Shown piece after piece: positions 7,013-34,925 of a stretch of 64,000 bases of DNA. The position numbers and the translations under genes were made by a program. The stretch lies in NCBI GenBank assembly GCA_900548675.1, contig URLJ01000002.1:87493-151492 (forward strand), in the 5' to 3' direction. The notes beneath the pieces were generated by a model. That model was not told the DNA's origin, searched no databases, and was given only the letters and a program-made list of their open reading frames with translations. This DNA comes from an uncultured Mollicutes bacterium (lineage in GTDB: Bacteria > Bacillota_I > Bacilli_A > ML615J-28 > CAG-313). The first letter of the stretch is position 1, and each line of letters starts with the position of its first letter.

Positions 7013-7030
7013 TGAAACCTCTTTAATTAT

Positions 7031-7294: not shown

Positions 7295-7302
7295 ACTATC
7301 AC

Positions 7303-8391
7303 CTATTTGATAACTGCAACGTTTGGTTTGAATCTAATTCCTTCTTTGTAAGCTGTATCTTCACTCTTGATATCTATTTTCCATCCTGTTACTTGAGAAG
7401 CAAGGCGAACATTTTGTCCCCCAATTCCTATCGCAAGTGTAAATTGTTTATCAGGAACAATCGCAATACATTGATGATTAGCCTCATCAGGTAAAATACT
7501 AATAGCTTTAGCTGGCATAAGAGCTGATGCAATAAGCTGAATAGGATCATCTTGCCATTGGAAAATATCTATTTTTTCATCATTTAATGCTTCATTAATT
7601 TGTTTAATTCTTAAACCATTAAAACCAACGCAAGCTCCTTTTGGATCGACTAAAGGGTTATTAGATTTAACGCCCACTTTACTACGATATCCTGGGGCTC
7701 TCGAAATATTCATTATTTCAATCGTACCATTAGCAATTTCTGGTACAGCCATTTCAAATAATCTTTTAACGATATCTTTTGTAGTTCTTGAAACATATAC
7801 TTTAGGGCCACGTGGTGTTTCTTCAACTTTTGTGATATATACTTTTGTTTTATCACCAACTTTTAATTCTTCAGTTGGTAACGCTTCAGTTTTTGGCATA
7901 TAGGCATCATAGTCCATTCCAATTCCTAAAACATATGCATCAGGGAATATTTTATTGACTGTCGCTGTTATCATTTCGTTTTCATGTTCTTGGAAGAATT
8001 CAAAAGCACGTTTACGGCCAAGTTCTTTTAAGCCTTGTGTAAAGATTTGTTTAAATTGACTTGCGCCTTTTCTTCCAACTTCTTTTTCAAAGTTAACTTC
8101 TCTTTTTATTACACTTCCTACGCGAACACGACTCTTTAGTTCTTTTGCAGCATCTAAAAGAATTTGACCTTCTGGGCCTTCTGGATCAATTTCATCGACA
8201 ACTGTTCTAACTGAGAAAACTCTTATTTTCTTTAATTCAGGGTTAAATTCAACTTGAATATCTCCTTCAATCCCTTCTAATTGGCAAGCCTTTTTCATAG
8301 CTACTGCAACTTTTTCTAAAACATCATTAATATCTAAATTTCTTTCGCTCGCGATAATTTCAAGTGATTCATAAAAACTCTTACTAGTCAT
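7303..8391 (-). CDS. nusA: Transcription termination/antitermination factor NusA
   Basis: S1 and KH domains and 362 aa. It sits between rimP and infB. Confidence 0.93.
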   Translation of the reverse strand: MTSKSFYESLEIIASERNLDINDVLEKVAVAMKKACQLEGIEGDIQVEFNPELKKIRVFSVRTVVDEIDPEGPEGQILLDAAKELKSRVRVGSVIKREVNFEKEVGRKGASQFKQIFTQGLKELGRKRAFEFFQEHENEMITATVNKIFPDAYVLGIGMDYDAYMPKTEALPTEELKVGDKTKVYITKVEETPRGPKVYVSRTTKDIVKRLFEMAVPEIANGTIEIMNISRAPGYRSKVGVKSNNPLVDPKGACVGFNGLRIKQINEALNDEKIDIFQWQDDPIQLIASALMPAKAISILPDEANHQCIAIVPDKQFTLAIGIGGQNVRLASQVTGWKIDIKSEDTAYKEGIRFKPNVAVIK

Positions 8392-8401
8392 AATATTCCT
8401 C

Positions 8402-8893
8402 CTAATTCATTTTAATTGCTAATCTTATTTTCGCAATTAAACGGTTTGGTATTTCTACTTCATATTTAAATTGTTTAATTAAAGCATTAATAATTATTTT
8501 TTCATCATCGGCATATAATAAATCGCCTTCAAATTCTTTATATTCATTCTTTTTAACAGGTATCTTTTCATATGTTTTTACATTAACATACTTACCAATA
8601 GCGGCTTTTACATCACGGCTATTTTTTAATTCTCTTTCTAAACCTGGTGATGTTACTTCTATACAATACTCTGTATCAATAGGATCTATCTCATCTAGCT
8701 TTTCACTTACTTTTTCACTTACTGTAACAGTATCATCAATTGAAAGCGTACTTGTACTATTATCTATTACAAATGAAATAATTCGTGTTCCAAATTCTTT
8801 TCTTTCTTCTACTTCTAAAAGTTCAAATCCTAATTCTTCTATGATACCTTTTAACTCTGTATAAAGTTTTTGTTCTAATGCGTTCATAAGCAT
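8402..8893 (-). CDS. rimP: Ribosome maturation factor RimP
   Basis: 163 aa and the first gene of the nusA-infB operon. The fold is RimP-like. Confidence 0.8.
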   Translation of the reverse strand: MLMNALEQKLYTELKGIIEELGFELLEVEERKEFGTRIISFVIDNSTSTLSIDDTVTVSEKVSEKLDEIDPIDTEYCIEVTSPGLERELKNSRDVKAAIGKYVNVKTYEKIPVKKNEYKEFEGDLLYADDEKIIINALIKQFKYEVEIPNRLIAKIRLAIKMN

Positions 8894-20911: not shown

Positions 20912-23900
20912 CTATTTATCTTTTAATATATCGTAAGCAGATGTATCAAATATATCTTTTTCTTGCTTTTCAACTGTTAATGAACTTGTTGCATCATATA
21001 ACAAGAAACGGAATTTTTCTTTACCTGCAGTATAATATATAAATTTAGGATTGCTTGGTGAAAAATAATCTACATCAACTGTATAATCATGTAAATCTTC
21101 TTTAGCAGTAGATGTTGCTTCATCAAGTGCAACACAACTATAGTTTTTACCACCACCATAATACGCAATCGCACCATTAACATAAGTCTCACCATTATAA
21201 CTAGCTAATATTTTTTCATGTGATATATCTTCATCATAGTATTCTTTTAATAGACTACTGAAATCCAAATTGAACCCTATTTTAGAAGCCACCGTTGTAA
21301 GGTTACCATTACTATCTTTGATCCCTTCAATTAAAGTGTCACTATTTACAGAAGATACCTTTTTCCAATCATAGAAACGTACATCATCTTTTAATCTCAA
21401 TAATGCAGGATAACTAGTACCGCTAATTCCACCCCAGCCAAGTTCACTGCCAAATTTAAAGTTATCACTGAAGTCCCAACCATGGAGAACTAATCCCCCA
21501 AACATCGCTTCAAGACCTATGCTGAATAATCCGGCATTCATAAATACACAGTTTTGCACCGTGATATCTGTTAGAATATAATTATTGTAAAATTTTTCAT
21601 CTTTATAATTATTATTATCAATTACATAGTTTTTAGTGCCATTACTTAAGTATGGTGATGCATCATCATAATAACTTACGTTGGTAATAGCATCTTGTGT
21701 CGTACTAATTGTTTTATTTGTAACACGTGTTGTTTTCATCACTTGGTTTGTACCAATCTTTAATAAGAATTCACGAGCATTAGTAAAAAGTGTTTTTGAG
21801 AAAGTAGCAGTTATGCGGTAATCACTAGGATTAAAGGTAGTATCGGTATGAGCTTTACCAAAAACTCTAACTGCAGTTCTACCATTATTTATTCTTGAGT
21901 AAGAAACATTACAATTATCGCCAACTATTTCTAAAACAGTACCACAATAATCTAAATTAGTTAAATCATATTCGCCATTACTTGAGGCGATGCTTTCATC
22001 ATTACATCCTTTTAATTCAACATTATGAATATTTATATTATCCTTTAAAACTGCAAAAATAATATTATCTTGAGATTTTACTGCTAAGTTGTTTGGAGCA
22101 CCGTTATAATCTTTATTGTATCTTACTAAATCAATTGGGCCACGATAAACGCGCGTACCAAATTTTTTATTTAACAATTGTGTCAAATTGTCTGCTGATA
22201 TAGCGTAACCATTTCCATATAAATCTGTTGATATTTCTACTGCGTAACGAATAACTGCATCTTTTAATTTACCAGTATTTTTATAATATGTAACATCACA
22301 AGTAGGATCCATCGTTGTAAGACAACTTAATGCATACTTTTCATAATTATCATCTTTAGTCATTTTTTCTAGTTCTGGTGCTAGCATAATATTGTTTTTC
22401 AAAACCATTACGTATTCTTTATCTTCAATATTCTTGCTGCAAACCATCAACTCTTCATATGTAGATATATTTATACCATTACTTAAAACATTTAATTTGA
22501 TGCTAGTTGAAGTATTGAGGTTATTCTTATCGATAACATCTACTTCCACTAAGCCTGTTTTACCTCCTAAATAGAAATAACCATCTTCACCAATTGTAAG
22601 GATATCTTCATCACTACTTGTTAAAATTAATTTAGAATAATCTATTTTTTCACTACCATTAGATAACATTCCAATTAAAGGTAGTCTCATTTTATGATCT
22701 TTATCAAACGGAATTAAACTCTTTAAAGATGTAGCACTATCAAATGAATAATATCCAAGGGTAGGAATTTCAGTGAATGATCCACTAACAACTTTAACAG
22801 GCATCTCATCATTATCTATTGCGAGAGATACATAATTGCTGTAGATTTTAACTTCTAGTGTTTCTACATCAAATAATTTTACCCCCGTGTCTTTTTGTGT
22901 GATTGAACATGTTAATTTAAATACACCTTCTAATTTATTAGTAGGTTTTATAAAACATCCAAAATAATAATTATTAGTTAATGGATTAACTTCCGCAAGT
23001 GTTATAACTTCAGCAGCATCTTTTTCTGATAAGCTAAATTTAACACTTACCTTTGATATATCTTTTATATCTGTATATAAAGTTGCAACTCTTGTATTTG
23101 AGGCATTCTTTCTCATCAATACTTCTAAGTTTTTATCAGCGTAATTAGCATATGTTAATAATGTTTCTTCAGTATGGTTTATACCAATAATAACTGCAAC
23201 ATAATTAACATCACTAACCTTTACAAGGATTACATCAAGTTTATCACCTATTTGAATAGCGTATGTCTTTTCATTAGATAAGAAATCTTTAGGATTATTA
23301 AATTCATACTCACCTGTTTGATCATCCCATGAAAGAGCTTTTCTTGTCATAGTAGAACCGAGAACAACAATTTTATTATTACCATCTAAATCAGTTACTT
23401 TAAGAGCACCTATGCTTGTTGGCGCTAACTCTTCTTTTTCAGTACTTCCAAAGCCACTTACTTTAACAGTTGTCTTATAAGCATATTTCAAATCTAGTGA
23501 TTCATCTTTTTTTATTATTTCAGTCAAATCTAAAACTTCAATCTCAGGTTCAGGATGAACAACAGGTTTTTCATGTGGTGTTACCTTCACTATAATAGCA
23601 CTTAAAGTCGTACCTTTTACATCGTCGCGAACTACTAATAATTCTAGTTCATAACCTATTTTTATTCCTTTAGTTTTTTCATTAGTTAAGAAATTACTAG
23701 GATTACTAAATGTATATACACCTTTTTCTTTATCCCAAGTAAGAGCGTTAGTTGAAGCGGTTGATCCAATTACTACTACTCTATTTTCACCATTTAAATC
23801 TGTCGCTTTAAAACAACCAGTTTCACTTGCTGCATCATCATCATAACTGAGGTTATTCCCCCAACTTTCAACTAAAACAGTTGTACGATATGCTTTCTTT

Positions 23901-24064
23901 AAATTTTCATTAGAATCTAAAGCACATATTTCTTGTAAACTTTTCCCTATTTTAGCAGGTTCTTTAAAACCTTTATCACCACTATTTCCTCCGCCACATC
24001 CTACAGCTACTACTGCTAGTACTAATACTAACAACATTCCTAAAATTTTTTTGATGTTTTTCAT
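20912..24064 (-). CDS. Large lipoprotein (1050 aa) with an internal duplicated roughly 100-aa module and a beta-helix-like C-terminal region
   Basis: Lipobox MKNIKKILGMLLVLVLAVVAVGCGGG. The units ...KATDLNGENRVVVIGSTASTNALTWDKEKGVYTFSNPSNFLTNEKT.. and ..KVTDLDGNNKIVVLGSTMTRKALSWDDQTGEYEFNNPKDFLSNEKT.. are repeated. Asn/Gly-rich beta-helix-like repeats follow. Confidence 0.8.
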   Translation of the reverse strand: MKNIKKILGMLLVLVLAVVAVGCGGGNSGDKGFKEPAKIGKSLQEICALDSNENLKKAYRTTVLVESWGNNLSYDDDAASETGCFKATDLNGENRVVVIGSTASTNALTWDKEKGVYTFSNPSNFLTNEKTKGIKIGYELELLVVRDDVKGTTLSAIIVKVTPHEKPVVHPEPEIEVLDLTEIIKKDESLDLKYAYKTTVKVSGFGSTEKEELAPTSIGALKVTDLDGNNKIVVLGSTMTRKALSWDDQTGEYEFNNPKDFLSNEKTYAIQIGDKLDVILVKVSDVNYVAVIIGINHTEETLLTYANYADKNLEVLMRKNASNTRVATLYTDIKDISKVSVKFSLSEKDAAEVITLAEVNPLTNNYYFGCFIKPTNKLEGVFKLTCSITQKDTGVKLFDVETLEVKIYSNYVSLAIDNDEMPVKVVSGSFTEIPTLGYYSFDSATSLKSLIPFDKDHKMRLPLIGMLSNGSEKIDYSKLILTSSDEDILTIGEDGYFYLGGKTGLVEVDVIDKNNLNTSTSIKLNVLSNGINISTYEELMVCSKNIEDKEYVMVLKNNIMLAPELEKMTKDDNYEKYALSCLTTMDPTCDVTYYKNTGKLKDAVIRYAVEISTDLYGNGYAISADNLTQLLNKKFGTRVYRGPIDLVRYNKDYNGAPNNLAVKSQDNIIFAVLKDNINIHNVELKGCNDESIASSNGEYDLTNLDYCGTVLEIVGDNCNVSYSRINNGRTAVRVFGKAHTDTTFNPSDYRITATFSKTLFTNAREFLLKIGTNQVMKTTRVTNKTISTTQDAITNVSYYDDASPYLSNGTKNYVIDNNNYKDEKFYNNYILTDITVQNCVFMNAGLFSIGLEAMFGGLVLHGWDFSDNFKFGSELGWGGISGTSYPALLRLKDDVRFYDWKKVSSVNSDTLIEGIKDSNGNLTTVASKIGFNLDFSSLLKEYYDEDISHEKILASYNGETYVNGAIAYYGGGKNYSCVALDEATSTAKEDLHDYTVDVDYFSPSNPKFIYYTAGKEKFRFLLYDATSSLTVEKQEKDIFDTSAYDILKDK
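23164..23881 (-). repeat. Intragenic duplication of two roughly 300-bp units separated by about 400 bp
   Basis: Visible at the DNA level (compare 23340-23420 with 23740-23820) and at the protein level. Confidence 0.55.
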
Positions 24065-24084: not shown

Positions 24085-24819
24085 CTAATTTTCAAATATT
24101 TCCATAAATTGATCTTCAAGTGTTTTGTTTGGATTATTCTTTTTAAATTCACTAATTACAATATCTGCAACTATTTCGCCACCATTTATGATATAAGCTC
24201 TATCACACGTTTTTTCAACAGCATCTAAATTATGAGAAGAATACAAAACAGCATTACCTTTTTCTTTGTAGACTTCCATATAATCCCTTAGAGCTTTACT
24301 AGTCTGTGGATCAAGACCAGTGAGTGGTTCATCTAAAAGCCACAATTTAGGACGATGGATTAAATTAGCCATTAAACAAATTTTTTGACGCATTCCATGT
24401 GAATAAGAAGAAATTAAATTATAAATTGCATCTCCAAGCTTAAAGACTTGTTGCATTTCTTCAATTCGCTCTTTTCTTTTGTCTTCTGCTACACCATGGA
24501 TATCTGCAATAAAATTTATATATTCAAACCCTGTCATCTTTTCAAACATAGCATGATTATCAGGAACATAACCAATTTCATTTTTAGCTTTTAAATCATC
24601 TTTAACAATATCATAACCGCATATCTTAATACTACCTTTATCAAAAGAGAAAAAACCTGTTAAACACTTTATGGTAGTAGATTTTCCTGCCCCGTTTTTA
24701 CCAAGTAACCCAACTATTTCTCCTGCATAACAATCGATATTTATGTCTTTTACCGCATAGGTCGTTTGTTTATTATATTTTTTATATAAACCTTTTATTT
24801 CTACTATTTTTTCTTTCAT
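24085..24819 (-). CDS. ABC transporter ATP-binding protein (ABC-2/BcrA-like)
   Basis: Walker A GKNGAGKSTT, signature variant YSHGMRQK, Walker B LWLLDEPLTGLD. Confidence 0.85.
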   Translation of the reverse strand: MKEKIVEIKGLYKKYNKQTTYAVKDINIDCYAGEIVGLLGKNGAGKSTTIKCLTGFFSFDKGSIKICGYDIVKDDLKAKNEIGYVPDNHAMFEKMTGFEYINFIADIHGVAEDKRKERIEEMQQVFKLGDAIYNLISSYSHGMRQKICLMANLIHRPKLWLLDEPLTGLDPQTSKALRDYMEVYKEKGNAVLYSSHNLDAVEKTCDRAYIINGGEIVADIVISEFKKNNPNKTLEDQFMEIFEN

Positions 24820-24829
24820 TTACTTTCAC

Positions 24830-25573
24830 CTAAATAACATTAACTAATATTTTAATTGTTTTTTCTTCATTTGAAATATTACCATTTTCATCAAGTAAAA
24901 CATATTTATAAGTTACGCTAACATAACTACTTCCTTTTTTAACTCCTGTTACTTTCCAACTGAACTTATCTGTAATAACTAGCACTTGTTCAGTTACGTT
25001 TTGAATGCTGAATTTACCCGTACCTAAAAGATAATCTCTTCCAATATTATATTTTTCTTGTAATTCTTCATCAAGTGGTAAATATTCAGTTATCGTGGTT
25101 TCTTCACCCACATTAATTGTGATTTCTCCTTTTTCAAAGTCAATTATTTTTACATCTTCTTTATTCATGTCTTTAGTTTTAATTCCCAAGGGTTCTGAGC
25201 AAATAAAATTAAAAGTTACAGCATCACTTCGATCCATCGCATTAACTCTTACCTTTATCCATCCGAGTGATTTAGGAATTACTACGCCATCATCCGTGAC
25301 TTCTACTTTTGCCTGCGGTTTGTTTTCAACTTCTTCGATAGTATATTTTAGTGTAATATTTACATCTTTTGGCATCACTATCGCCTCTATTTTTAGAAGA
25401 GGGTTATTTTCTAATTCTTTAGCGATATCCACTACCCTTGTGTGACGGCCATCTACACTAACACTTGTAACAGTAGGATTCACAACTATTGCGGTTTTTT
25501 TAATTACAACACTTGTTGTAAAAATTAAAATGATTGGAATTATTAGTATTAGAATTATTATTTTTTGTTTCAT
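24830..25573 (-). CDS. Membrane-anchored extracellular protein (N-terminal TM plus a beta-rich Ig-like ectodomain) associated with the ABC transporter
   Basis: MKQKIIILILIIPIILIFTTSVV is a TM helix. The remainder is beta-rich. The gene is wedged between the permease and the ATPase with 7-10 nt gaps. Confidence 0.5.
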   Translation of the reverse strand: MKQKIIILILIIPIILIFTTSVVIKKTAIVVNPTVTSVSVDGRHTRVVDIAKELENNPLLKIEAIVMPKDVNITLKYTIEEVENKPQAKVEVTDDGVVIPKSLGWIKVRVNAMDRSDAVTFNFICSEPLGIKTKDMNKEDVKIIDFEKGEITINVGEETTITEYLPLDEELQEKYNIGRDYLLGTGKFSIQNVTEQVLVITDKFSWKVTGVKKGSSYVSVTYKYVLLDENGNISNEEKTIKILVNVI

Positions 25574-25579
25574 AACTCT

Positions 25580-27250
25580 TTACCCCTCAAATTCATGATA
25601 TCTTTTATTTAACGATTTTATCAAATATAGATACGATAATACTAATATTACAACTACGCTAATAGTTAAAAAGCCGATGGATAACCACATAGCTAAAGCG
25701 CTAGATTTAAGAGTTGAAACCACTACGGATAGTGTGAGTGAACCTCCTCCTAAAATAATTGATACGATAAGACCTAGGAAGATAACAACCGATGTTCCAA
25801 CATTTTCTTCCGCATCATCACTATTAGTTATTTTAGGATTATTTAAGTCTTTTCTCGTCGCAAACATTATTTCTGATGCCGATAAGAGACTCGCAATTAT
25901 AAATATAACTAAGGCTTGATACCACGTAATGAAGCCTGTTGCGAGAAGTATTACATCACTTGCGATAAGGCCTATTTCCGAAACAATTAAACAGAACAAA
26001 ACTTTACTTAAAACGATTTGTTTACCACTAACTGGTAATGTTTTTAAAATATAAAGCATCTTTCCATCTCTTGAAATATTTGTGGTACAAAAAGTATTTG
26101 TTATTACAACAAACATTGTTATTACAAATATCGCTAATTCATAATCACAATTCACTAAAGCAATACCAGGTATTTTAATCATCATTTCTTTCATAATATT
26201 AACACAAACATATATCATAAATGGCAGAGTAACTGTCGTCGCAAGATATTGGAATGCATAACTTGGTGTTCTTAAAACCACCTTAAATTCTTTTATAATT
26301 AGGCTTGTAATAATATTCTGTTTTTTATATCTTACTTTAGGTGTTTTTTCTCTTTTATTTATGCCTTCAAGTTTGATTTGAAGTAGTTTTTTGTATACTA
26401 CACCAACAATAAAAACACTAAGAACAACACACAAGAAAGATAGTCCAATAATTATCATTAATGATAAAAAATAATTTTGATTTATCATCATTTTCGCAAA
26501 TAAATTAATCGGATATGCACGATCACATATTTTTTCTATTACTGCTATTCGCCGCAATTCAAAGAAGTATGTCATATCACCACTTTGAAGTAGGGCGGTT
26601 AAAACATTTAAAAATATACTATATAAATAAAAACCAATACCCAAGATTATTACATATATTACTAGATGGAGGATAAATTTCTTTTCAATAAAATCCATCA
26701 CATAATTGTATCCAATTGATAATACGGCGGCAATTCCACATGATACCATTGGAATTAAGAAAAGGTGAAGGACAATTGAAGAATAGAACGCTACTCCACT
26801 TGCATAACTACTGATATTAGCCACTACAATGCTGACGGGTATTATGATTATAGCAGTCGATGCTATTTGAGATAAATATATTTTAATTAACTTATACAAG
26901 AAAATGCTCTTTGAACTAATTGGATGAACCATAAGAACTTCCATATCTTTTGTACTCATCGTTGTCGTATATATCTTTTTCACACCCAGTAAAACGTTAA
27001 TTACGATGATTCCTCCATAAGTTATGGTAAGTATTTCAAATAATCTTCTTATTTCATTTGATGGATCATCAAACGTTTTTGTAATATACATTTTAGTAAA
27101 TTTATAATACACATATATAAATGTTCCATAAAGAATGAGGATTAAAAGGATTGTGGATATGTATCCTAATATATCTTTTTTATTTCTTTTAAAAATTGAT
27201 AAAAACCTTTCAGTAAAATCTTTTTTAAATAAAATTAGTACTTTATTCAT
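25580..27250 (-). CDS. Polytopic ABC transporter permease (about 12 TM; ABC-2 type exporter-like)
   Basis: 556 aa of alternating hydrophobic helices. It is the first gene of the operon and is followed closely by the ATPase. Confidence 0.6.
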   Translation of the reverse strand: MNKVLILFKKDFTERFLSIFKRNKKDILGYISTILLILILYGTFIYVYYKFTKMYITKTFDDPSNEIRRLFEILTITYGGIIVINVLLGVKKIYTTTMSTKDMEVLMVHPISSKSIFLYKLIKIYLSQIASTAIIIIPVSIVVANISSYASGVAFYSSIVLHLFLIPMVSCGIAAVLSIGYNYVMDFIEKKFILHLVIYVIILGIGFYLYSIFLNVLTALLQSGDMTYFFELRRIAVIEKICDRAYPINLFAKMMINQNYFLSLMIIIGLSFLCVVLSVFIVGVVYKKLLQIKLEGINKREKTPKVRYKKQNIITSLIIKEFKVVLRTPSYAFQYLATTVTLPFMIYVCVNIMKEMMIKIPGIALVNCDYELAIFVITMFVVITNTFCTTNISRDGKMLYILKTLPVSGKQIVLSKVLFCLIVSEIGLIASDVILLATGFITWYQALVIFIIASLLSASEIMFATRKDLNNPKITNSDDAEENVGTSVVIFLGLIVSIILGGGSLTLSVVVSTLKSSALAMWLSIGFLTISVVVILVLSYLYLIKSLNKRYHEFEG

Positions 27251-27292
27251 AAAATCTCCTGTTGATACGATTTTCCCCCTCTTTACTTGTTT

Positions 27293-27301
27293 ATTATAAC
27301 A
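27293..27301 (-). promoter_or_regulatory. Extended -10 element (TGtTATAAT) upstream of the permease start. This is the likely promoter of the ABC/giant-protein operon.
   Basis: The minus strand reads aTGtTATAAT about 40 nt upstream of the ATG at 27250. The SD agagggggaaaa lies between. No clear -35. Confidence 0.4.
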
Positions 27302-27393
27302 TATTGAAATTACAAAGCCTTATTTTACGTACCTACTAGTTCTAGTAAAAGACCTACCTTTGTACTACAAAAGCTAGTAGATAATTATTATTT

Positions 27394-27447
27394 AAAAAAA
27401 GCAGTTCTATTAAATACCCTTTAAAAGGATATATAGAACTGCTTTTT
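27394..27447 (-). terminator. Rho-independent terminator of the RHH/SPFH/TIR operon
   Basis: Stem agcagttctat...atagaactgct flanked by A- and T-tracts, immediately after the stop of the TIR gene. Confidence 0.7.
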
Positions 27448-27451
27448 ATTA

Positions 27452-30421
27452 TTAATTTTCTATTATGACTAGTGTTTGACCACCACTAACTGTTTCACCT
27501 TTTTTTACCCATATTTCTTTAACTGTCCCTGATATTGGTGAAACAATTTCGTTTTTTAACTTCATTGCTTCTAAAGATAATAGCGTACTTCCTTTAGGCA
27601 CTTTATCACCAACATTTACGGCTATATCTAATACTTCTCCTGCCATTGGGGCTTTAATTATTTCTCTTACTTTTTCTAAGGATGGTTCACTATTAAAATC
27701 CACATCAGTATCAACAATTATGATAGGTGCTATACCATGTCTTTTTTGATATACAAGTGATGATTCTTTTTCACCTTGGTTAGAAACGACGAAACATTTA
27801 TCAATAACAGTTGGGAAAGGAGTTCTTAAAAAGTAACTACCTTTTTTATCAAGTGTCGCACATCCTTTAGCAACAGCATAATCTGTAGGTCTTTTTACAT
27901 CTACTTGATCGATATAACAAGGTATCGTTACTTTGTCAATAGTGTTTTCACAAACACATCCAAGATATAGATTATTGCTGTTGTTTGCGGTATTAGGAGT
28001 AGTGTATATACTATTATCTACATTCATAGGTAGTATATATGTATCTAGTGCGTTGTTAAAGGCTTTTTTATAAAATTCATTATTAAGCCAACTGCGTACA
28101 TCAGAATATTCATAGTTATTAGGTTTAATCATTTTACCATCAATCATTCGTTCACGACACATTGAGGCATATTCTTGTCTATCAAGAATAGTTTCACTTA
28201 ATAAAATATATGCACTTTCTTTTCCTTCATCATTTTCAGTTTTTTGAACTGTCCATTTAATTGGCATTACTTTAAAGTAATAAGTTTTACCAGCCTCAAG
28301 AGCAGTTTGATCTGATGTGTAGTAATTACTAATATTAACATCAGCTACTACTTTTTCGTAACGTGCTCCGTCACTTCCCAAATAGTAACCATCTTTATCA
28401 GGGGTATCACTTGTTATTTTAACATATTCTTTTTTTAAATCTTGAGGATATTCTCCAAAATAAATGGTTTCACCATCTTTTTTTCCACCAATAGATGCCC
28501 ATTTAACTTTTAAAATGATTGTAGCAGTTTTATCTTCTGATACGGTATATTTATCAACCACTAATTCATTTGATTCACCTATACCTGGTTTTTTAGCTAT
28601 TAAATGACCATTTACTAATTTAACTAATCCTCCATTACCATCGTATGTAATATCAATCTTAAAGCCTAGTGACATAAGACTTGTAATTGCTTCTTTATAA
28701 TAATTGTTATAAAGTTTAAGTTTAGCATCATACATACCATTCTTTATTTTACCCTTAGCGAAGAGCCCAAGTTTGGCATCTTTTTGTGGTATTACTTCTA
28801 TTACTGTTTCAGTAAATCCCGCTTGTTTTAATCTTTCATTTTCTTCTGTGATAAATTTTTGTCTTTCTGTATAACGCTTTTCTTTTACTTCTCGTTGTTT
28901 TAATTCTTTATAAGTGTTGTTAACTTCTACAAATAATGCTCTACCTTCATCATCTAAATCAATATTCGATAATAAATTATATGCAGTTTTAACATCGCCA
29001 TCGGCAAATGCCTTTCTTACTTTCGTATATGTCTCTTGCATATATTGATATGTATTCTGGCAATCTTCAAGTTTATCTTTAGCATCACAGAAATCATCTG
29101 CTTGAGTTAATTCTTCAATTGCCTCTTTGTAATTATTAGTTAAAATATAATTTACTGCAGCATCATAATGTTTTTTACATTCATTATTTTTTATTATCTT
29201 ATTGCTGATTGACAGTAACTCTTCTTTATATTCAGCGTCCGCAAAAGTTAAAGCTTTTTTAAAGTTTTTATTATTTGTAATATCACTCGTGTAATTAACT
29301 AAATCGCCGGCTTTAGTAAGTGATAAGTCGATTAACATTAATAAAAAGTAAGCTTTGGCATTTTCAGGATCAATATTTAAAATATTATCAAGAACTTCTT
29401 TGGCTTTAGGATAATCTTCATCACTGATTAAAATTTCACTTCTTCTAAGTAAAGGAGATACGTTATTATTGATATTTGTGTTTTGAATTGTTTGTTCCAC
29501 CACTATTTGCTTTTTAATGGTTCTATCAAAGATTTTATCAATACCTCTTACAAGATCTTGAATAAATCCTAATTTATTCATATCCTGAGCTTGGAACAAC
29601 GCTAATTCTTCTGGTAACTCGTAAGCTTCCATATCTCTGTAACATGGTATAATATATCTTTTTTGGTCCGTATCATCCATCATACTGATGAATCTACTCC
29701 ACTCATTTTTAACCCATACCGCATTATAATATTCTGGCTTTGTTCCTATTACAAGCATAACTTTAGCACTTGATAAGGCAGCATATATATATGGTTCATA
29801 CTTAGCACCAGGAATACTTTCAAGGGTTATTTTTGAGAAGAATACCCGGTATCCTTTACTTACTAATTCATCATATACTTCTTGGGCTATTACAGAATCC
29901 CTCGTTCTTTTTCCTTCAGAACTTGTTTCTTTATAACAAATGAATATATCATAAGGCTCTTCTTTTTGTGATATCATCAATATCTCTTTTTGCAATCTAT
30001 TGATTTCTTCAGCTTCTGCTTGATATATTCTTTTAGCTACCACGTCACTGTTTTCAATGGCTGCTAAATAATCAATGTCATCAAAAATTGATTTTAATTG
30101 TGTTCTATGACATGTAGGAATCTTTCTATTTGTAGCTTTATCATCAACATATTCTATTCCATATCTACAAAGTAATAATCCCCAGTGAGCTTCTGCATCT
30201 TTAGGATTTTCATTAATAATGTTTTCATATGTTATGATAGCTTTATCAAACATATTATTTAGTCTTAAACTATTAGCTCTGTTATGAAGGGCGGCTAGCT
30301 TTTCATTATCTACAATATTAGGAACCGTTTGTTCTCTTTCACAATATTCACATCTAGCCGTTGTGGCTCCTTCTGGAACGTTAATTATAGCCCCACATGC
30401 TTTACATTTAAATTCTCTCAT
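27452..30421 (-). CDS. Multidomain protein (989 aa). Domains in order: N-terminal C4 zinc ribbon, TIR domain, helical/TPR-like region, unknown beta-rich region, and a C-terminal biotinyl/lipoyl (BCCP-like) domain.
   Basis: Zinc ribbon: CKACG...CEYCE. TIR: YDIFICYKETSSEGKRTRDSVIAQEVYDELVSKGYRVFF...AKVMLVIGT...YYNAVWVKNEWSRF (about aa 155-290). C-terminus: IKAPMAGEVLDIAVNVGDKVPKGSTLLSLEAMKLKNEIVSPISGTVKEIWVKKGETVSGGQTLVIIEN, which matches the AccB biotinyl-domain consensus including EAMK. Confidence 0.7.
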   Translation of the reverse strand: MREFKCKACGAIINVPEGATTARCEYCEREQTVPNIVDNEKLAALHNRANSLRLNNMFDKAIITYENIINENPKDAEAHWGLLLCRYGIEYVDDKATNRKIPTCHRTQLKSIFDDIDYLAAIENSDVVAKRIYQAEAEEINRLQKEILMISQKEEPYDIFICYKETSSEGKRTRDSVIAQEVYDELVSKGYRVFFSKITLESIPGAKYEPYIYAALSSAKVMLVIGTKPEYYNAVWVKNEWSRFISMMDDTDQKRYIIPCYRDMEAYELPEELALFQAQDMNKLGFIQDLVRGIDKIFDRTIKKQIVVEQTIQNTNINNNVSPLLRRSEILISDEDYPKAKEVLDNILNIDPENAKAYFLLMLIDLSLTKAGDLVNYTSDITNNKNFKKALTFADAEYKEELLSISNKIIKNNECKKHYDAAVNYILTNNYKEAIEELTQADDFCDAKDKLEDCQNTYQYMQETYTKVRKAFADGDVKTAYNLLSNIDLDDEGRALFVEVNNTYKELKQREVKEKRYTERQKFITEENERLKQAGFTETVIEVIPQKDAKLGLFAKGKIKNGMYDAKLKLYNNYYKEAITSLMSLGFKIDITYDGNGGLVKLVNGHLIAKKPGIGESNELVVDKYTVSEDKTATIILKVKWASIGGKKDGETIYFGEYPQDLKKEYVKITSDTPDKDGYYLGSDGARYEKVVADVNISNYYTSDQTALEAGKTYYFKVMPIKWTVQKTENDEGKESAYILLSETILDRQEYASMCRERMIDGKMIKPNNYEYSDVRSWLNNEFYKKAFNNALDTYILPMNVDNSIYTTPNTANNSNNLYLGCVCENTIDKVTIPCYIDQVDVKRPTDYAVAKGCATLDKKGSYFLRTPFPTVIDKCFVVSNQGEKESSLVYQKRHGIAPIIIVDTDVDFNSEPSLEKVREIIKAPMAGEVLDIAVNVGDKVPKGSTLLSLEAMKLKNEIVSPISGTVKEIWVKKGETVSGGQTLVIIEN

Positions 30422-30435
30422 ATATATCCTCTTTT

Positions 30436-31134
30436 CTATTTAGCACTGCGTATTTTAATACTTCTTTCTTTTACTAAAGATATGACTTTATCTATTTGAT
30501 ACGATACCTTTTCATAATCATTATCATAGTATGCTGATTTCAAGGAGGAATAATTATCATTGATTTCATCTTCGATATCTTCTACAATGCTCGTAGAAAT
30601 AGGATCAGTGTAAATTATCAATTCATATAGTTTAGCGAATTTTTCCCTTAATGGTTCGTATTTAAACTCATTATTAAATACTTTTATATCATCCCTTAAT
30701 GTTTTCATAAACTCTTGTTTAGCCTTTGCTTCTGCTTCATTTTCCTTTAAGGCATCTTTATAAAATTCCACTTTAATAATGCTCATTACTTCTAATCCTA
30801 CGATTATTACATTAACTATTAATACGAACCAAAGCGGTACATTAAAGAAATTATTAAAAATCGTTACAAGTATTGTTATAATAAAAGTTACGACAAGATA
30901 TATCAAACTAACCCTTACAAGAGGGATGCCGTATACCTTAATTTTTAAGTTTTTTTCTTTGTAAAAAGCTGCATAAAATGTATATAATTGAGCCAAAATA
31001 GCTACCATCATAAAGATATATGAGGTAATATAAACACTTAAATTTACATAGTTAAAAGGGATTATGAAATAGCATAAAGAGAATATTAAAGCAATTATAC
31101 CTAACGCAATAATAAATCTAATTTTATTTTTCAT
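30436..31134 (-). CDS. Membrane protein (four N-terminal TM helices plus a cytoplasmic charged/coiled C-terminal domain), the middle gene of the operon
   Basis: Hydrophobic helices within aa 8-120. The C-terminal region is rich in E/K/D and Y. It is separated from both neighbours by 2-14 nt. Confidence 0.55.
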   Translation of the reverse strand: MKNKIRFIIALGIIALIFSLCYFIIPFNYVNLSVYITSYIFMMVAILAQLYTFYAAFYKEKNLKIKVYGIPLVRVSLIYLVVTFIITILVTIFNNFFNVPLWFVLIVNVIIVGLEVMSIIKVEFYKDALKENEAEAKAKQEFMKTLRDDIKVFNNEFKYEPLREKFAKLYELIIYTDPISTSIVEDIEDEINDNYSSLKSAYYDNDYEKVSYQIDKVISLVKERSIKIRSAK

Positions 31135-31136
31135 AT

Positions 31137-32864
31137 TTATTCACCCTTTTTTGTTCCGCAATTAGGACAGAATGGTGTCGTTATATTTTTCATCCCACAT
31201 TCACAATCCCAGGTATTATTTGTTGTAGGTTTCTTACAGCCACACTCTGGGCAGAATGGTGTCGTTATATCACTTTTTCCGCAGTTAGGACAAACCCAAG
31301 TATTGTTCGGTGTCGGTTTTTTACTTCCACAATTAGGGCAGAAAAGTGTTGTTACTTCACTGTGACAATTAGGACAAGTCCATTTATTTTGACTTACTGG
31401 TTTTTCTTCTTTAAGATTTAACGTTGGATTGACCGTGTTTTTAACAGTACTAGCTACTTCACCCATTACTCCAAGGCCTACTCCTAAACCTACCATATCA
31501 TTCATCAATCCTGTCACTCCCCCTACTTGACCTTGATTTTCCATAGCAGCTTTAGCAACTTGACGTTGTGTCTCTTGTTGATATGTGTAACCTTTCATTT
31601 GCATTTCCTTAGCTTCAGCTTCAGCCTTTAGGCGATACGCTTCAGCAGATGCTTGCGCTTTGATAATTTCTTCTTGAGCGGCCGTTTGTGCCTCAACCAT
31701 TTTACGTTGTTGTGCGGCTTCGGCTTCAGCTTTTTTGATGCGTTCTTCTGCCACAAGCAAATATTTTTCAGCATATTGTTCTTTTAAACGTTTGAAGTTT
31801 GGATCATCATCTGGTGTCATAATTGTTGTAATAAAGAATTCTGGCATTATCAAGCCATATGCTTCGAGGGCTCTATTAATTTCATTCTTCAAAACATTTG
31901 ATATTTCTTCAATGTGTTCATCTACTTCTAAAATATTGATTGCTTCTTCTCTTATTGTCTTAGCCAAGAAAGACTTAACTTTAGCGGTAACTAATGCTTT
32001 GAATTTTCCTTTCATTCCCACATTTGAGTAATCACTTCCCATTAAATCATTTTGATTTAATTCACCTGTTGTACCTACTACTTTTATTAAAAGTTTTCTT
32101 GGATCATTAACTTTAATATTAAACTCACCACAGGCACCTAATTCAACATGCATGCCTGTTGCGGGATCAAACATTCTTATACGTGTATCAGTTCCCCATT
32201 TTATGCCCATTTGCGTTGTTAAATTAACATAGTAAACCTCTGCATGGAACATATTTGTATCTGATACAGTTGGAAGCTTATAAGTTTTATTTAATAATGG
32301 AATATTATCAGTATTAAGTGTGTATCTACCAGCTCCGAAGGAATCAAGAGCTTTACCATCTTTTAAGAATACAGCTTCTTGTGATTCATGAACAATAAGT
32401 TGTGTTCCCAAATTGAAATCTTCAACAGGATGTTTCCATACTAAGACATCATTAGGTCCTTCATATTTTATTACTGATATTATGCCATCTTTAGTCAAAT
32501 TTTGTTTTAAAATTTGTTCTTTAACATTAATTGTTGTATCACATAAAGGGCAAGTATATGTTGTAGCATTTTTATCTACCGTTAACTCGCAAGAACAAGT
32601 TGGACATTTGATTTCAGCAGTGTTTTTTAACGCATCTTCAGTTGCAAGTTTTTCTTTACAAATAGGACAAACAGCTTTGTTTCCTTTTGATTGATCATAA
32701 ACCACAGTGTTCTTACAATGAGGACAAACAATTGATTTCATCTTATCCTTTTTAATATTTATTACCATACCACAAGTACATTGGATATTCTTTTTTGAAA
32801 AAATTGATGTTGATGCTTCATTATAAGCACCGCAATGTGGGCATTCAATTACAAATTTTGCCAT
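31137..32864 (-). CDS. SPFH/band-7-like protein of the YdjI / 'virion core protein' (PRK13665-like) family, flanked by three N-terminal and three C-terminal C4 zinc ribbons
   Basis: Core HESQEAVFLKDGKALDSFGAGRYTLNTDNIPLL...VNLTTQMGIKWGTDTRI and an Ala/Glu/Gln coiled coil. The N-terminus has three CxxC..CxxC units. The C-terminus repeats W.CPNCG....ITTPFCP.CG.KKPT.NNT three times. Confidence 0.6.
   Translation of the reverse strand: MAKFVIECPHCGAYNEASTSIFSKKNIQCTCGMVINIKKDKMKSIVCPHCKNTVVYDQSKGNKAVCPICKEKLATEDALKNTAEIKCPTCSCELTVDKNATTYTCPLCDTTINVKEQILKQNLTKDGIISVIKYEGPNDVLVWKHPVEDFNLGTQLIVHESQEAVFLKDGKALDSFGAGRYTLNTDNIPLLNKTYKLPTVSDTNMFHAEVYYVNLTTQMGIKWGTDTRIRMFDPATGMHVELGACGEFNIKVNDPRKLLIKVVGTTGELNQNDLMGSDYSNVGMKGKFKALVTAKVKSFLAKTIREEAINILEVDEHIEEISNVLKNEINRALEAYGLIMPEFFITTIMTPDDDPNFKRLKEQYAEKYLLVAEERIKKAEAEAAQQRKMVEAQTAAQEEIIKAQASAEAYRLKAEAEAKEMQMKGYTYQQETQRQVAKAAMENQGQVGGVTGLMNDMVGLGVGLGVMGEVASTVKNTVNPTLNLKEEKPVSQNKWTCPNCHSEVTTLFCPNCGSKKPTPNNTWVCPNCGKSDITTPFCPECGCKKPTTNNTWDCECGMKNITTPFCPNCGTKKGE
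31140..31376 (-). repeat. Three tandem roughly 80-bp direct repeats encoding the C-terminal zinc-ribbon units
   Basis: The DNA-level unit recurs as ...ggacagaatggtgtcgttatat... / ...gggcagaatggtgtcgttatatc... / ...gggcagaaaagtgttgttac... Confidence 0.6.
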
Positions 32865-32868
32865 ATTA

Positions 32869-33072
32869 TTAATTCTCCTCCATATCTGAAATAACTAAAT
32901 TTTTTAATGAAAATTCTAAACACATAATCATAATCTCATTTCTCGTTCTACCAGTTTTTTCGGCAACCAAATCTATTTCTTTAGCAAGCTCACTTGGCAT
33001 TCTTGTAGAAACGACAATTGATTCACCTTTGTATTTTTTAGATTGAATCTCAAGTTTCACTTTACTTTCCAT
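32869..33072 (-). CDS. Ribbon-helix-helix (CopG/Arc-like) DNA-binding protein, the likely autoregulator of the operon
   Basis: MESKVKLEIQSKKYKGESIVVSTRMPSELAKEIDLVAEKTGRTRNEIMIMCLEFSL has a beta strand followed by two helices. The SD AAAGAGG lies 8 nt before the ATG at 33072. The longer ORF-track N-terminus has no SD. Confidence 0.6.
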   Translation of the reverse strand: MESKVKLEIQSKKYKGESIVVSTRMPSELAKEIDLVAEKTGRTRNEIMIMCLEFSLKNLVISDMEEN

Positions 33073-33094
33073 AACATTTACCTCTTTCATTAAC

Positions 33095-33123
33095 ATTATA
33101 ATACAAATGTATACAAATGTCAA
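33095..33123 (-). promoter_or_regulatory. Perfect consensus sigma-A promoter (-35 TTGACA, 17 nt, -10 TATAAT) driving the RHH/SPFH/TIR operon
   Basis: The minus strand reads TTGACAtttgtatacatttgtatTATAAT. The TSS is predicted about 15 nt upstream of the RHH ATG. Confidence 0.7.
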
Positions 33124-33154
33124 AGATAAAGCATTACAAATGTATACATTTGTA
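33101..33154. promoter_or_regulatory. Operator-like repeats: a tandem direct 10-mer (ATACAAATGT x2) in the promoter spacer and a perfect 20-bp palindrome (TACAAATGTATACATTTGTA) just upstream of the -35
   Basis: 33101-33120 is atacaaatgtatacaaatgt. 33135-33154 is tacaaatgtatacatttgta, which is self-complementary. The same ACAAATGT half-site occurs four times. Confidence 0.65.
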
Positions 33155-33194
33155 TTATATGCAGTATTATTTAAATGATTACAAACTAAAATAA

Positions 33195-33237
33195 AATAAA
33201 AAAGAATTTAAAATCCTCAAGGACTAAAAATTCTTTT
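33195..33237 (-). terminator. AT-rich hairpin and U-tract after trmH (weak terminator)
   Basis: aaaaagaattt...aaattcttttt with an inner tcc/gga stem. The stem is AT-rich, so confidence is low. Confidence 0.35.
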
Positions 33238-33983
33238 TACTTTAAATAATAATACATAAGAATGCTTGAAGCTACCGCAACATTAAGAGACTCGACATCA
33301 TTATGCATAGGAATTATAACAGAGGTAGTTGCATTATTTAGGAATTCCTTTGAAACGCCATTCGCCTCATTACCGACTATTATTGCGAAAACTGAAGTAG
33401 GGATAACCTCATCTAAAGTTCGTTTAGCATCTAAACTAGATACTACAATGTCAAAATCATTATTCTTTAAATAATTAATTATCTTACCCTTTTCTTCTAT
33501 AATTACTGGTATTTTAAACAAAGCTCCTTGTGTAGCTCTCACCACTTTATCATTATATGCATCTACAGTATCACTTGTTAAAATGACCGCATCCATCCCT
33601 AAAGCAGCCGATGTTCTTATAATTGTACCTAGATTACCAGGATCTTGAATGTTATCAAGAACTATTATTTTTTTAAAATCTTTACTAATGTAGTTTTTAC
33701 ATTTCTCTACAACCCCAATAATACCTTGTGTAGTAACAACATTTGAGAGTTTTTTAATTATTTCTTTTGTCACGATATATATATTAACACTTTGATAGTT
33801 TTTGATATCAATGGCATCAATATCTAAGATATACACTTCTTTTAGTAAACCATGTTTTAAGGCTTCTTCTACTAAATGATAACCTTCTACTAAATATGTA
33901 TTAGTCTGTTCGCGATACTTTTTTTCTTTTAGTTTGGCCGTTTCTTTTATTTTATTATTTTGTAAAGATGTAATTTTTTCCAT
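33237..33983 (-). CDS. TrmH/SpoU-family RNA 2'-O-methyltransferase
   Basis: SpoU methylase motifs ILDNIQDPGNLGTIIRTSAALG, FAIIVGNEANGVS and IPMHNDVESLNVAVA. Confidence 0.85.
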   Translation of the reverse strand: MEKITSLQNNKIKETAKLKEKKYREQTNTYLVEGYHLVEEALKHGLLKEVYILDIDAIDIKNYQSVNIYIVTKEIIKKLSNVVTTQGIIGVVEKCKNYISKDFKKIIVLDNIQDPGNLGTIIRTSAALGMDAVILTSDTVDAYNDKVVRATQGALFKIPVIIEEKGKIINYLKNNDFDIVVSSLDAKRTLDEVIPTSVFAIIVGNEANGVSKEFLNNATTSVIIPMHNDVESLNVAVASSILMYYYLK

Positions 33984-33985
33984 TT

Positions 33986-34633
33986 TTAACTGACCATTCC
34001 TATGAAACTCTTATATAAATAAACATTACTAAGCACAGTCATAGCGATTAAATAAACAACAAATATAATATATACAATTAAATATAAACGTTTATTTTCT
34101 TTTTTATTTTTATGATTACCAATAAATGTTAACCAAATAAGGGACATTACAGCTAAAATAATTAGTGGATAAATTGTGTTTATTCCTACTAATTTCCACA
34201 CATCTGCTTTTTCAGTAATACTTGTTATTTTATCATTTTCAATAAATTTATTTATAATTTTTATTCCCATGAAAACAAGGAACCAGAAATTCGTAAATAG
34301 CATCGCAATTATTCCACTCAAGTAATAGAAGTGATTAATACGATTTAACCACTCTAATTTCTTAGGCTTTTTTGCTTCTTCTTTTTCATGTTCCATTTCA
34401 TGTTTTTTTTCTATTTCTTCAGTAAGTGACAATCCTAATTTACTTTCTAACATTTCATATACATCTTGAAGTTCTTGATATTCTTCATCAGATATTGATG
34501 GTGTTCCATCTGTTAAAAGTTGTTCATTATAATTATTTATTTTATTAAAGACTTCCTCTTGTAGTTTTTTTGCTTCTTCGATATCATCAGGAATATTATA
34601 TTTATTCATAGTTTCCTCCTTCTCATACAACAA
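33986..34633 (-). CDS. Hypothetical membrane protein (acidic N-terminal region, 3-4 C-terminal TM helices)
   Basis: ORF with the SD GAAGGAGGAAAC. Helices run from about aa 95 to 215. Confidence 0.5.
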   Translation of the reverse strand: MLYEKEETMNKYNIPDDIEEAKKLQEEVFNKINNYNEQLLTDGTPSISDEEYQELQDVYEMLESKLGLSLTEEIEKKHEMEHEKEEAKKPKKLEWLNRINHFYYLSGIIAMLFTNFWFLVFMGIKIINKFIENDKITSITEKADVWKLVGINTIYPLIILAVMSLIWLTFIGNHKNKKENKRLYLIVYIIFVVYLIAMTVLSNVYLYKSFIGMVS

Positions 34634-34724: not shown

Positions 34725-34925
34725 TTATTTAGTTGCGATTTGAGATTGAGCCATAGAAACTAAACGACGAGTAATTTCTCCACCAACTGTACCATTTTGA
34801 CGAGCAGTTGCATCTGGTCCTAAATGTACGCCAAGTTCGTTAGCGATTTCATATTTCATTTGAGAAAGAGCATTTTCTGCACCTGGAACAGCTAATCTGT
34901 TTTTGCTGTAAGATGAATTATTCAT
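34725..34925 (-). CDS. Small acid-soluble spore protein, alpha/beta type
   Basis: [60 protein letters not shown] closely matches the SspA/SspB consensus. Confidence 0.92.

Follow-up and report, generated by a model that had tools for sequence, protein, structure and literature searches.

An operon of gut bacteria that encodes an SPFH protein, a new membrane protein family, and TIR-domain proteins with variable C-termini

Among the TIR-based antiphage systems, it is common for a Thoeris locus to combine a single thsA with more than one thsB gene. SPFH proteins of a different kind are known from the PspA-YdjGHI (SamGHI) system of Bacillus subtilis, in which YdjI/SamI has been described as a soluble SPFH protein with a low-complexity segment and C-terminal zinc ribbon(s) (PMC8581546; PMC11237479) and is recruited by SamG/SamH (PMC8581546; bioRxiv 10.64898/2026.02.06.704340). 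DUF6273 is a C-type-lectin-like target domain of diversity-generating retroelements (DGRs) in gut phages (PMC10743442; PMC11792537; bioRxiv 10.1101/2024.10.15.618418), and for other bacteria it has been proposed that TIR-type effectors are fused to sensors diversified by DGRs (PMC10907252; PMC7159879). Here we describe a four-gene operon from an uncultured Mollicutes bacterium, located on a 64,000-nucleotide stretch of contig URLJ01000002.1 (GCA_900548675.1, positions 87,493 to 151,492), which is called the window below. The operon encodes a ribbon-helix-helix (RHH) regulator, an SPFH protein, a membrane protein, and a TIR-domain protein; the system is TIR-based, its conserved partners and its topology are new, and it is apparently undescribed so far and conserved across many gut bacteria.

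Organization, conservation and control of the operon

Four minus-strand open reading frames (ORFs) fill positions 27452–33154 of the window (G+C = 30%) and are separated by gaps of 4, 2, and 14 nt. In the order of transcription, these are the RHH gene (32869–33072, 67 aa from ATG), the SPFH gene (31137–32864, 575 aa), the gene of a membrane protein with four transmembrane (TM) helices, named 4-TM protein here (30436–31134, 232 aa), and the TIR gene (27452–30421, 989 aa). A sigma-70-type promoter, TTGACA-17-TATAAT, lies ahead of them on the same strand (33095–33123; the -35 box at 33118–33123 and the -10 box at 33095–33100), and it was the sole 12/12 consensus match in a promoter scan of the 8 kb from 26500 to 34500, over which the number of promoter-like sites equalled the shuffled expectation. 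Two TACA-NN-TGTA operator sites, TACAAATGTA and TACATTTGTA, join upstream of the promoter to form the 20-bp perfect palindrome TACAAATGTATACATTTGTA (33135–33154), and a third site, TACATTTGTA, is situated within the promoter spacer and abuts the -10 box (33102–33111). At the other end, the operon is closed by an intrinsic terminator on the minus strand (approximately 27396–27447), a long hairpin followed by a T-run, with a folding energy of -24.8 kcal/mol and a z of -6.93 (0/200 shuffles equally stable); a simple terminator scan missed it because of the long loop of the hairpin. The locus is identical in four independent assemblies. The region is confirmed as a genuine, self-contained, and co-transcribed four-gene module, and the tight packing of the minus-strand genes, the perfect promoter with its operator repeats, and the strong terminator are all present as a sequence-only reading of this DNA had described them.

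Chance is a very poor explanation for this arrangement, since dozens of unrelated genomes contain the same set of genes. An SPFH-centred scan, using peptide patterns from the window SPFH protein and one genome per species, gave 80 loci and sampled one SPFH subfamily. All-against-all clustering of the ORFs from 86 loci returned as recurrent families SPFH (79 loci), 4-TM (55 loci), TIR (47 loci, 61 proteins), and RHH (21 loci), with divergent partners being under-counted by ORF calling and tblastn detection. Two smaller clusters recurred as well, one of an alternative XRE regulator (7 loci) and one of a generic ABC ATPase (8 loci), and the remaining neighbours all differ. Of the SPFH loci, 33 extend at least 4 kb to either side, and 28 of these have a TIR gene no more than 3 kb from the SPFH gene; the TIR matches are on the SPFH strand in every case (51/51). 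When the search was centred on the TIR gene, eight of nine look-ups on long contigs showed the order (RHH)-Band_7_1-~236 aa-TIR; for the ninth, locus L081, no SPFH gene is present in the stretch that was fetched, which reached 4 kb upstream and 8 kb downstream. The co-occurrence of the homologues, on which the sequence-only reading had made its proposal depend, is thus seen from both the SPFH and the TIR side.

The order of the genes is variable, including RHH-SPFH-4TM-TIR as in the window, RHH-TIR-SPFH-4TM, and TIR-RHH-SPFH-4TM-TIR. Where TIR genes accompany an SPFH/4-TM pair, they number one to four, and tandem paralogues differ in their C-termini, with four in L004 (in the order SPFH, 4-TM, TIRs), and tandem arrays also occur in L008, L011, L059, and L082. 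Most hosts are Bacillota of the gut or rumen (Oscillospiraceae, Lachnospiraceae, Acutalibacteraceae, Acholeplasmatales, and metagenome-assembled genomes (MAGs) of Bacilli), together with a few bins of other phyla or methanogens. The methanogen bins (L004, Methanocorpusculum; L075, Methanobrevibacter) and the Bacteroidales bin (L001) reflect either bin contamination or horizontal transfer.

The RHH protein gave a borderline match to Pfam RHH_1 (E = 7e-4, 19.9 bits against a cutoff of 20.5) and an Arc match at E = 0.018, and its homologue in L092 carries an RHH_1 match. The same 67-aa call was repeated by gene callers in four independent assemblies, and a β-strand plus two-helix pattern, VISxRLP...LD..A..TGRTRNEI..LEFAL, is common to 21 homologues. 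Upstream of the RHH gene, TACA-NN-TGTA was found in 14 of 24 homologous loci, at a density of 4.2 per kb compared with 0.017 per kb elsewhere in those loci, an enrichment of ~240-fold. The operator also lies between the -35 and -10 boxes in L015, L025, L031, L036, L037, L028, and others, and this placement (a TTGAC-type -35, then the -10) is shared by Acholeplasmatales, Lachnospiraceae, and Coprobacillus-like MAGs. Strong comparative evidence therefore indicates that the RHH protein would bind these sites and repress its own operon by occluding the promoter; the dedicated RHH repressor that had been proposed is consistent with both the conserved RHH pattern and the palindromes overlapping its own promoter. 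The protein ends at the RHH core, with no C-terminal extension in its 67 aa, and no type II antitoxin family was matched above its cutoff (RelB-like, 16.7 bits against a cutoff of 50; BrnA, 15.2 against 60). An XRE-type helix-turn-helix gene (~92 aa) replaces the RHH gene just upstream of the SPFH gene in L040, L041, L044–L046, L011, and L023. In the Acutalibacteraceae loci with the XRE-type regulator, the SPFH/4-TM pair stands without a TIR gene nearby.

Structures of the TIR, SPFH and membrane proteins

The TIR protein begins with a zinc ribbon (aa 1–31) and a TPR-like region (aa 39–151), which are followed by the TIR_2 domain (aa 156–296; 29534–29956), TPR and long helices (aa 320–532), a β domain (aa 587–640), a putative ligand-binding, C-type-lectin-like DUF6273 domain (aa 648–905; 27707–28480), and a biotinyl domain of the biotin carboxyl carrier protein (BCCP) type (aa 920–988; 27458–27664), all encoded on the minus strand. 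The TIR_2 match (E = 5.5e-12, 46.7 bits) exceeds its cutoff of 28. The AlphaFold2 model has a mean pLDDT of 81.9, with values >90 over the TIR domain, and Foldseek gave a probability of 1.0 against the TIR domains of SARM1, RUN1, SPARTA TIR-APAZ, and MAL (target-normalised TM-score of 0.62 for SARM1). The TIR domain claimed by the sequence-only reading is supported by both lines of evidence. Foldseek also matched TPR arrays and found the C-terminal DUF6273 part similar to the IgA peptidase of Thomasclavelia ramosa. Against the PDB, a single-sequence search with the TIR domain found no match, and a profile gave weak matches only.

The predicted catalytic glutamate, E240, lies in the motif WVKNEW (codon 29702–29704). 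Across 78 aligned homologues, no variation is seen at W236, N239, E240, W241, and R243, nor at three of the four cysteines of the zinc ribbon, and C6, the remaining cysteine, is nearly invariant. A weak profile alignment (E = 0.45) pairs E240 with the Glu in the "WCLMEL" motif of the TIR domain of flax L6; this Glu is the catalytic residue of L6, at the position that is also catalytic in the NADase TIRs SARM1 and RUN1. The first ~370 residues of the protein, including E240, are almost invariant across orders, with a TIR domain identity of 60–70%, and the C-terminus is hypervariable. The modelled fold of the TIR domain matches NADase TIR domains and carries a catalytic-type glutamate, and the domain is predicted to cleave NAD+.

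A search with the TIR protein, capped at 8,000 candidates, returned at least 7,999 homologues, and the domain and topology counts given here are from the best 120 (P0001–P0120). These share only the first 45–60% of the query, beyond which their C-terminal domains include Flg_new, Flg_new_2, LRR_5/LRR_8, DUF6273, RCC1, and GH9. Directly after the conserved zinc-ribbon/TPR/TIR module, 98 of the 120 have a strong hydrophobic (TM) helix; 74 of these continue for >100 aa beyond the helix, 13 are tail-anchored, and 11 are neither (some with several C-terminal TM helices). The region before the helix carries 5.9 Lys+Arg per 15 residues and the region after it 1.9, a positive-inside bias. The helix and the charge bias together lead to a predicted N-in/C-out topology for the typical member, with the TIR domain in the cytosol and a variable domain outside, and the family would thereby follow the domain logic of Toll-like receptors in reversed order. 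The remaining 22 homologues have no TM helix. The window protein is among these, and no TM segment is predicted in its 989 aa. The TPR repeats and DUF6273 domain, both detected with Pfam, had gone unlisted in the sequence-only reading, as had the hypervariable C-termini, the TM topology of the relatives, the tandem TIR paralogues, and the DGR link described below.

The SPFH protein matches Pfam Band_7_1 (E = 1.3e-35), as well as DZR and Zn_ribbon_3. Its SPFH domain (aa 149–353) is preceded by an N-terminal cluster of five CxxC zinc ribbons (aa 1–112) and followed by an A/E/K-rich coiled coil, a Gly-rich, moderately hydrophobic segment (aa 447–475), and a C-terminal cluster of five further CxxC zinc ribbons (aa 487–572). 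Hydropathy revealed no strong TM helix in this protein or its 80 homologues (median best value 1.37), most of which have the C-terminal CxxC repeats; the closest relative, with 63% identity, occurs in a Coprobacillus-like MAG. The YdjI-like nature that had been claimed for the protein holds, as the Band_7_1 domain, the lack of a strong TM helix, the low-complexity segment, and the terminal zinc ribbons match the published description of YdjI/SamI. We assume that YdjI itself belongs to PF13421.

The 4-TM protein is modelled as all-helical, with four TM helices and a cytosolic helical bundle that bears a conserved (R/K)YSDP motif (IYTDP at aa 174–178 in the window protein). Its homologues were gathered with a profile built from locus-derived homologues, since a single-sequence search gave near-identical copies only, and the window protein has no Pfam match above threshold, its 69 homologues none at all. 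The 4-TM gene is always a direct neighbour of the SPFH gene. The 4-TM protein represents a new, unnamed family without a Pfam model. A YdjH-like identity is rejected: there is no TPM_phosphatase match, and the model is all-helical.

The DUF6273 domain of the window TIR protein was identified by Pfam (E = 1.2e-9), and the matches of an exhaustive search span aa 648–909 (query aa 9–270 of 350). Over its full length it can be aligned with the DUF6273 domain of the TIR homologue in L081, including the variable region of the latter, which corresponds to aa 861–899 in the window (27725–27841, minus strand). The L081 protein has one TM helix and its DUF6273 domain outside, and a bAvd gene (7155–7523) and an RVT_1 gene (7838–8878) are situated downstream. 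Between these two genes, a template repeat (~7552–7664) matches the end of the DUF6273 domain, and the variable region (6949–7065) shows 83% identity to it over 117 nt, with mismatches almost only at template adenines. The L081 TIR homologue is a bona fide DGR target. A DGR was rejected for the window itself, where tblastn with the L081 proteins found no reverse transcriptase (RT) or Avd and blastn found no repeat of the 3' third of the TIR gene; among 14 strain variants of the window protein, the 37 variable positions are scattered, without a hypervariable patch. In L062 (~7797–8105) and L063 (~4486–4896), the SPFH/4-TM pair is followed by a ~380-aa DUF6273 protein without the TIR module.

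The biotinyl domain is a clear Biotin_lipoyl match (E = 8.7e-18, 64.4 bits against a cutoff of 22.1), and the NCBIfam models of BCCP, OadA, and pyruvate carboxylase (PycB) match it as well, from E = 1.7e-18 at best to 1e-12. Its EAMKL motif (aa 951–955) contains the predicted biotinyl-lysine K954 (codon 27560–27562), with Leu replacing Met after the lysine, and K954 is probably biotinylated. A biotinyl domain occurs in 0/82 homologous loci (L001–L082). An exhaustive HMMER search with aa 640–989 against 1.84 billion representatives found no other DUF6273+biotinyl or TIR+biotinyl protein; three candidates were examined and rejected, all being multi-biotinyl carrier proteins. In that search, the closest relatives of the biotinyl domain are multi-biotinyl carriers of the decarboxylase-gamma (OAD_gamma) type (P0345), which suggests that the fused domain came from a carrier of this kind. 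An assembly error does not explain the fusion, because 31 near-identical variants of the TIR protein are public and the locus is identical in four independent assemblies; the length is 989 aa in 13 of the 15 variants listed, one is a 437-aa fragment, and such variants occur on contigs of up to 172 kb. The biotinyl domain noticed in the sequence-only reading is therefore real; as a feature of the system it does not stand, being confined to this lineage.

Genomic context and proposed function

The reading that we prefer, and to which we give about an even chance, is that the operon is autorepressed and encodes a membrane-associated module in which TIR proteins serve in sensing or conflict on an SPFH platform. 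An RHH dimer would bind the palindromes and block the promoter, thereby keeping expression low. The 4-TM protein would bring an SPFH oligomer to the membrane, as SamG/SamH do with SamI, to form a joint platform, onto which the conserved zinc-ribbon/TPR module may dock one or several TIR paralogues. The variable C-terminal domain would act as the sensor, placed outside the cell behind one TM helix in most relatives and represented in the window by the cytosolic DUF6273 domain together with the probably biotinylated domain. Ligand binding, with phage, a competitor, or another ligand as candidate triggers, would lead to self-association of the TIR domains and to NAD+ cleavage. Either NAD+ would then be depleted, or a signal derived from ADPR would act on the SPFH/4-TM pair, and the cell would stop growing or die, or its envelope state would change.

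Several observations weigh against this interpretation. The operon is flanked in the window by SpoU-methylase, ThiI, and cysteine-desulfurase-type genes on one side and by a 12TM_1 permease, an ABC ATPase, and large MBG-domain proteins on the other. Around the homologous modules, ~8 of 150 flanking genes match PADLOC models (AbiEii, WYL, mad2/3, ZorD-like, RT-protease, and LmuA), as a raw count, and the commonest Pfam families among the 150 are metabolic. For the four proteins themselves, no PADLOC family was found at E <= 0.01, and none of the TIR/Thoeris or SPFH kind. Viral contigs almost never carry the module. With 60–70% identity across orders, the TIR domain is conserved to a degree that is unusual for an immune gene. 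The partnership is not obligatory, as SPFH/4-TM pairs without a TIR gene exist (L040–L046), and in L081 the TIR gene stands without an SPFH gene in the fetched stretch. Furthermore, the proposed interaction of the three proteins is deduced from gene linkage, and the sensor logic is least certain for the window protein, with its missing TM helix and unprecedented biotinyl domain. A position in defence islands, which the sequence-only reading had suggested checking, was found neither in the window nor around the homologues; the module behaves as a self-contained insert in varied places, apparently without a classical defence-island signature.

Known defence systems and carriage by phages or prophages were rejected for the module. 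At E <= 0.1, the single PADLOC match, of PtuA to the SPFH protein, is weak (E = 0.036) and irrelevant, and 2.9 million viral contigs contained two TIR matches and no SPFH match. Regarding Thoeris, the NCBIfam type III ThcB4 model scored 22.6 bits against a cutoff of 220, and no ThsA/ThsB match was obtained with PADLOC. No paper describing an SPFH-TIR system was found in the searchable literature, in agreement with the novelty claimed at the outset, and an earlier passing mention of TPR-TIR contexts may exist; SPFH/Band-7 is unmentioned in both a 2025 systematic survey of TIR signalling systems and a 2026 domain-centric discovery paper.

Some single neighbours are of note. Two family members are flanked by known abortive-infection genes: AbiH lies directly downstream of the TIR gene in L092 (7657–8514), and AbiEii lies upstream of it in L081 (1034–1894). 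Among ADP-ribose-related genes, Macro is directly upstream of the SPFH gene in L085 (5108–5626), NUDIX occurs in L083 (10749–11165) and L089, and the L089 module has NUDIX and ADP-ribosylglycohydrolase genes nearby (16373–16909 and 22479–22766). These ADP-ribose-related cases are anecdotal, not being among the commonest families of the 150 neighbours, and may be coincidence. In the window, a minus-strand ORF of 3120 aa with three MBG_2 domains (11514–20876) and one of 1050 aa without a Pfam match (20912–24064, minus strand) are preceded by an ABC ATPase gene (24085–24819), an unassigned 247-aa ORF (24830–25573), and the 12TM_1 permease gene (25580–27250); together they probably form a cluster for surface proteins and transport that has no connection with the operon. 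On the other side, a gene for a small acid-soluble spore protein (66 aa; 34725–34925, minus strand; PF00269 in matching assemblies) identifies the host as a low-G+C (30%) spore-former.

Alternatively, the module may serve envelope stress or membrane homeostasis in the manner of SamGHI/YdjGHI, a serious if unlikely reading in which the SPFH/4-TM pair would sense membrane perturbation and the TIR protein would be a housekeeping signalling enzyme or adaptor instead of an immune effector. The YdjI architecture and Band_7_1 domain of the SPFH protein (PMC8581546), the housekeeping contexts in place of defence islands, the strong purifying selection on the TIR module, and the lineages in which the core SPFH/4-TM pair occurs without a TIR gene all speak for it. 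However, no pspA, TPM-domain YdjH, or YdjG-like gene is present in the window flanks or among the top families of the 150 neighbours; hypervariable sensors, tandem paralogues, and DGR diversification are hallmarks of an arms race over ligands; and tight repression of a consensus promoter suggests a costly or toxic product.

A bolder form of the sensing idea, which we consider rather unlikely, sees in the family a prokaryotic counterpart of Toll-like receptors. TM receptors with catalytic TIR domains in the cytosol and hypervariable outside domains (LRR, Flg_new, C-lectin), at least one of them DGR-diversified, would sit on the SPFH/4-TM platform, and contact with phage or foreign surfaces would make them trigger a response derived from NAD+. 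The window protein would be a cytosolic offshoot that senses by its C-lectin domain together with the biotinyl domain, which might serve as an integrated decoy that guards the biotin-carrier machinery against a phage or competitor effector, similar to the integrated-decoy logic of plant TIR-NLR receptors.

It is improbable, in our judgement, that the operon is a surface-protein anchoring system, with the TIR-family proteins as adhesins or enzymes (LRR, Flg_new, C-lectin, GH9) on cells with an atypical wall, tethered to an SPFH microdomain, and the TM-less window copy as a degenerate or regulatory paralogue. The N-in/C-out topology with typical surface domains in 74 of the 120 homologues would suit such a role, as would hosts that include Acholeplasmatales, Mollicutes, and Erysipelotrichales-type MAGs, the common diversification of surface ligand-binding proteins by DGRs (PMC10743442), and the likeness of the DUF6273 region to part of a gut-bacterial IgA peptidase. 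Nevertheless, the catalytic-type Glu and TIR motif, invariant in 78/78 aligned sequences, argue for enzymatic activity; the 13/120 tail-anchored homologues without an outside domain and the 22/120 fully cytosolic ones would make no sense for a pure anchor; and dedicated tight repression is unusual for adhesins.

Least probable is a strictly Thoeris-like system, with ThsB-type TIR paralogues that make a cADPR-type signal and an SPFH/4-TM pair as the signal-activated, membrane-disrupting effector: the one to four TIR paralogues per pair, the TM effectors of new Thoeris types (bioRxiv 10.64898/2025.12.03.692087), and the conserved Arg, Tyr, and Asp in the cytosolic motif of the 4-TM protein are in its favour, but no Thoeris match above threshold and no defence-island context were found, as described above, Pfam found no known signal-binding domain (SLOG, Macro, STING, SAVED, or DUF6650) in the SPFH or 4-TM partner, and the idea is a sub-case of the sensing or conflict reading, not fully independent of it.

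If the mechanism of the preferred sensing or conflict module is true, a widespread system of gut Bacillota joins TIR-based biology, with unusual traits: an SPFH scaffold and a new 4-TM family as partners, a receptor-like topology with interchangeable outside domains, and one sensor that is rewritten by a DGR. Bacterial surface sensing of threats or ligands via TIR enzymes would become directly testable, with the conserved RHH operator as a ready induction handle, and the poorly understood YdjI-type SPFH proteins would gain a concrete client. The biotinyl-TIR fusion of the window is a one-off architecture among the 1.84 billion representative proteins.

Comparison with known systems

The DGR-diversified C-lectin targets, such as phage Mtd, tentaclins, DUF6273 proteins, and the conflict sensors of multicellular bacteria, resemble the window DUF6273 domain by way of L081. 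In contrast to these, the window has no RT, Avd, or template repeat, and its DUF6273 domain is cytosolic and followed by a biotinyl domain. In the case of the BCCPs (AccB, the C-terminus of OadA, and decarboxylase gamma subunits), the canonical biotinyl domain and the E-A-M-K motif are shared, whereas the window domain is fused to a TIR/C-lectin protein, has no carboxylase or decarboxylase partner in the operon, and carries Leu for Met.

The typical member of the family shares with animal Toll-like receptors a TIR domain in the cytosol, a single TM helix, and a ligand-binding domain outside the cell that is variable and often made of LRRs; its operon also encodes a flotillin-like (SPFH) partner. 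However, the TIR domain is N-terminal in the module and C-terminal in Toll-like receptors, and the retained catalytic glutamate is of the enzyme type, not the adaptor type. Common descent of the whole architecture is unsupported, and the window protein is without a TM helix.

In the PspA-YdjGHI system of Bacillus subtilis, too, the SPFH protein is soluble, contains a region of low complexity, and ends in zinc ribbon(s), and its gene adjoins genes of membrane proteins expected to recruit it (PMC8581546; PMC11237479; bioRxiv 10.64898/2026.02.06.704340). There are significant differences between the two. A pspA gene was found neither among the four genes of the operon, as the sequence-only reading had pointed out, nor among ten flanking window genes or the 25 commonest Pfam families of the 150 neighbours. 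The TPM-domain YdjH is replaced by the all-helical 4-TM protein, and YdjG, with two zinc ribbons, an NTF2-like domain, and a TM helix, has no counterpart in the operon; the TIR protein, which had been regarded as a derivative of YdjG, contains one zinc ribbon followed by TPR and TIR domains and has no NTF2-like domain. The module adds TIR proteins and an RHH repressor, and its SPFH protein often has an extra N-terminal cluster of five zinc ribbons. From the idea of a YdjGHI module in inverted order, only the resemblance to YdjI remains.

Thoeris and other TIR antiphage systems (ThsB; SPARTA TIR-APAZ, SpbK) have in common with the module a catalytic-type glutamate, a predicted NADase-TIR fold, several TIR paralogues per partner module, and tight regulation of expression. 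Compared with Thoeris, the module shows no sequence membership, and its partners are the SPFH and 4-TM proteins, with no known signal-binding effector. Its TIR proteins are large, contain zinc ribbons and TPRs, and are mostly transmembrane with outside domains, and no defence-island setting was found for the loci. The defining features of both Thoeris and YdjGHI were tested and are mostly absent here; the module is a member of neither.

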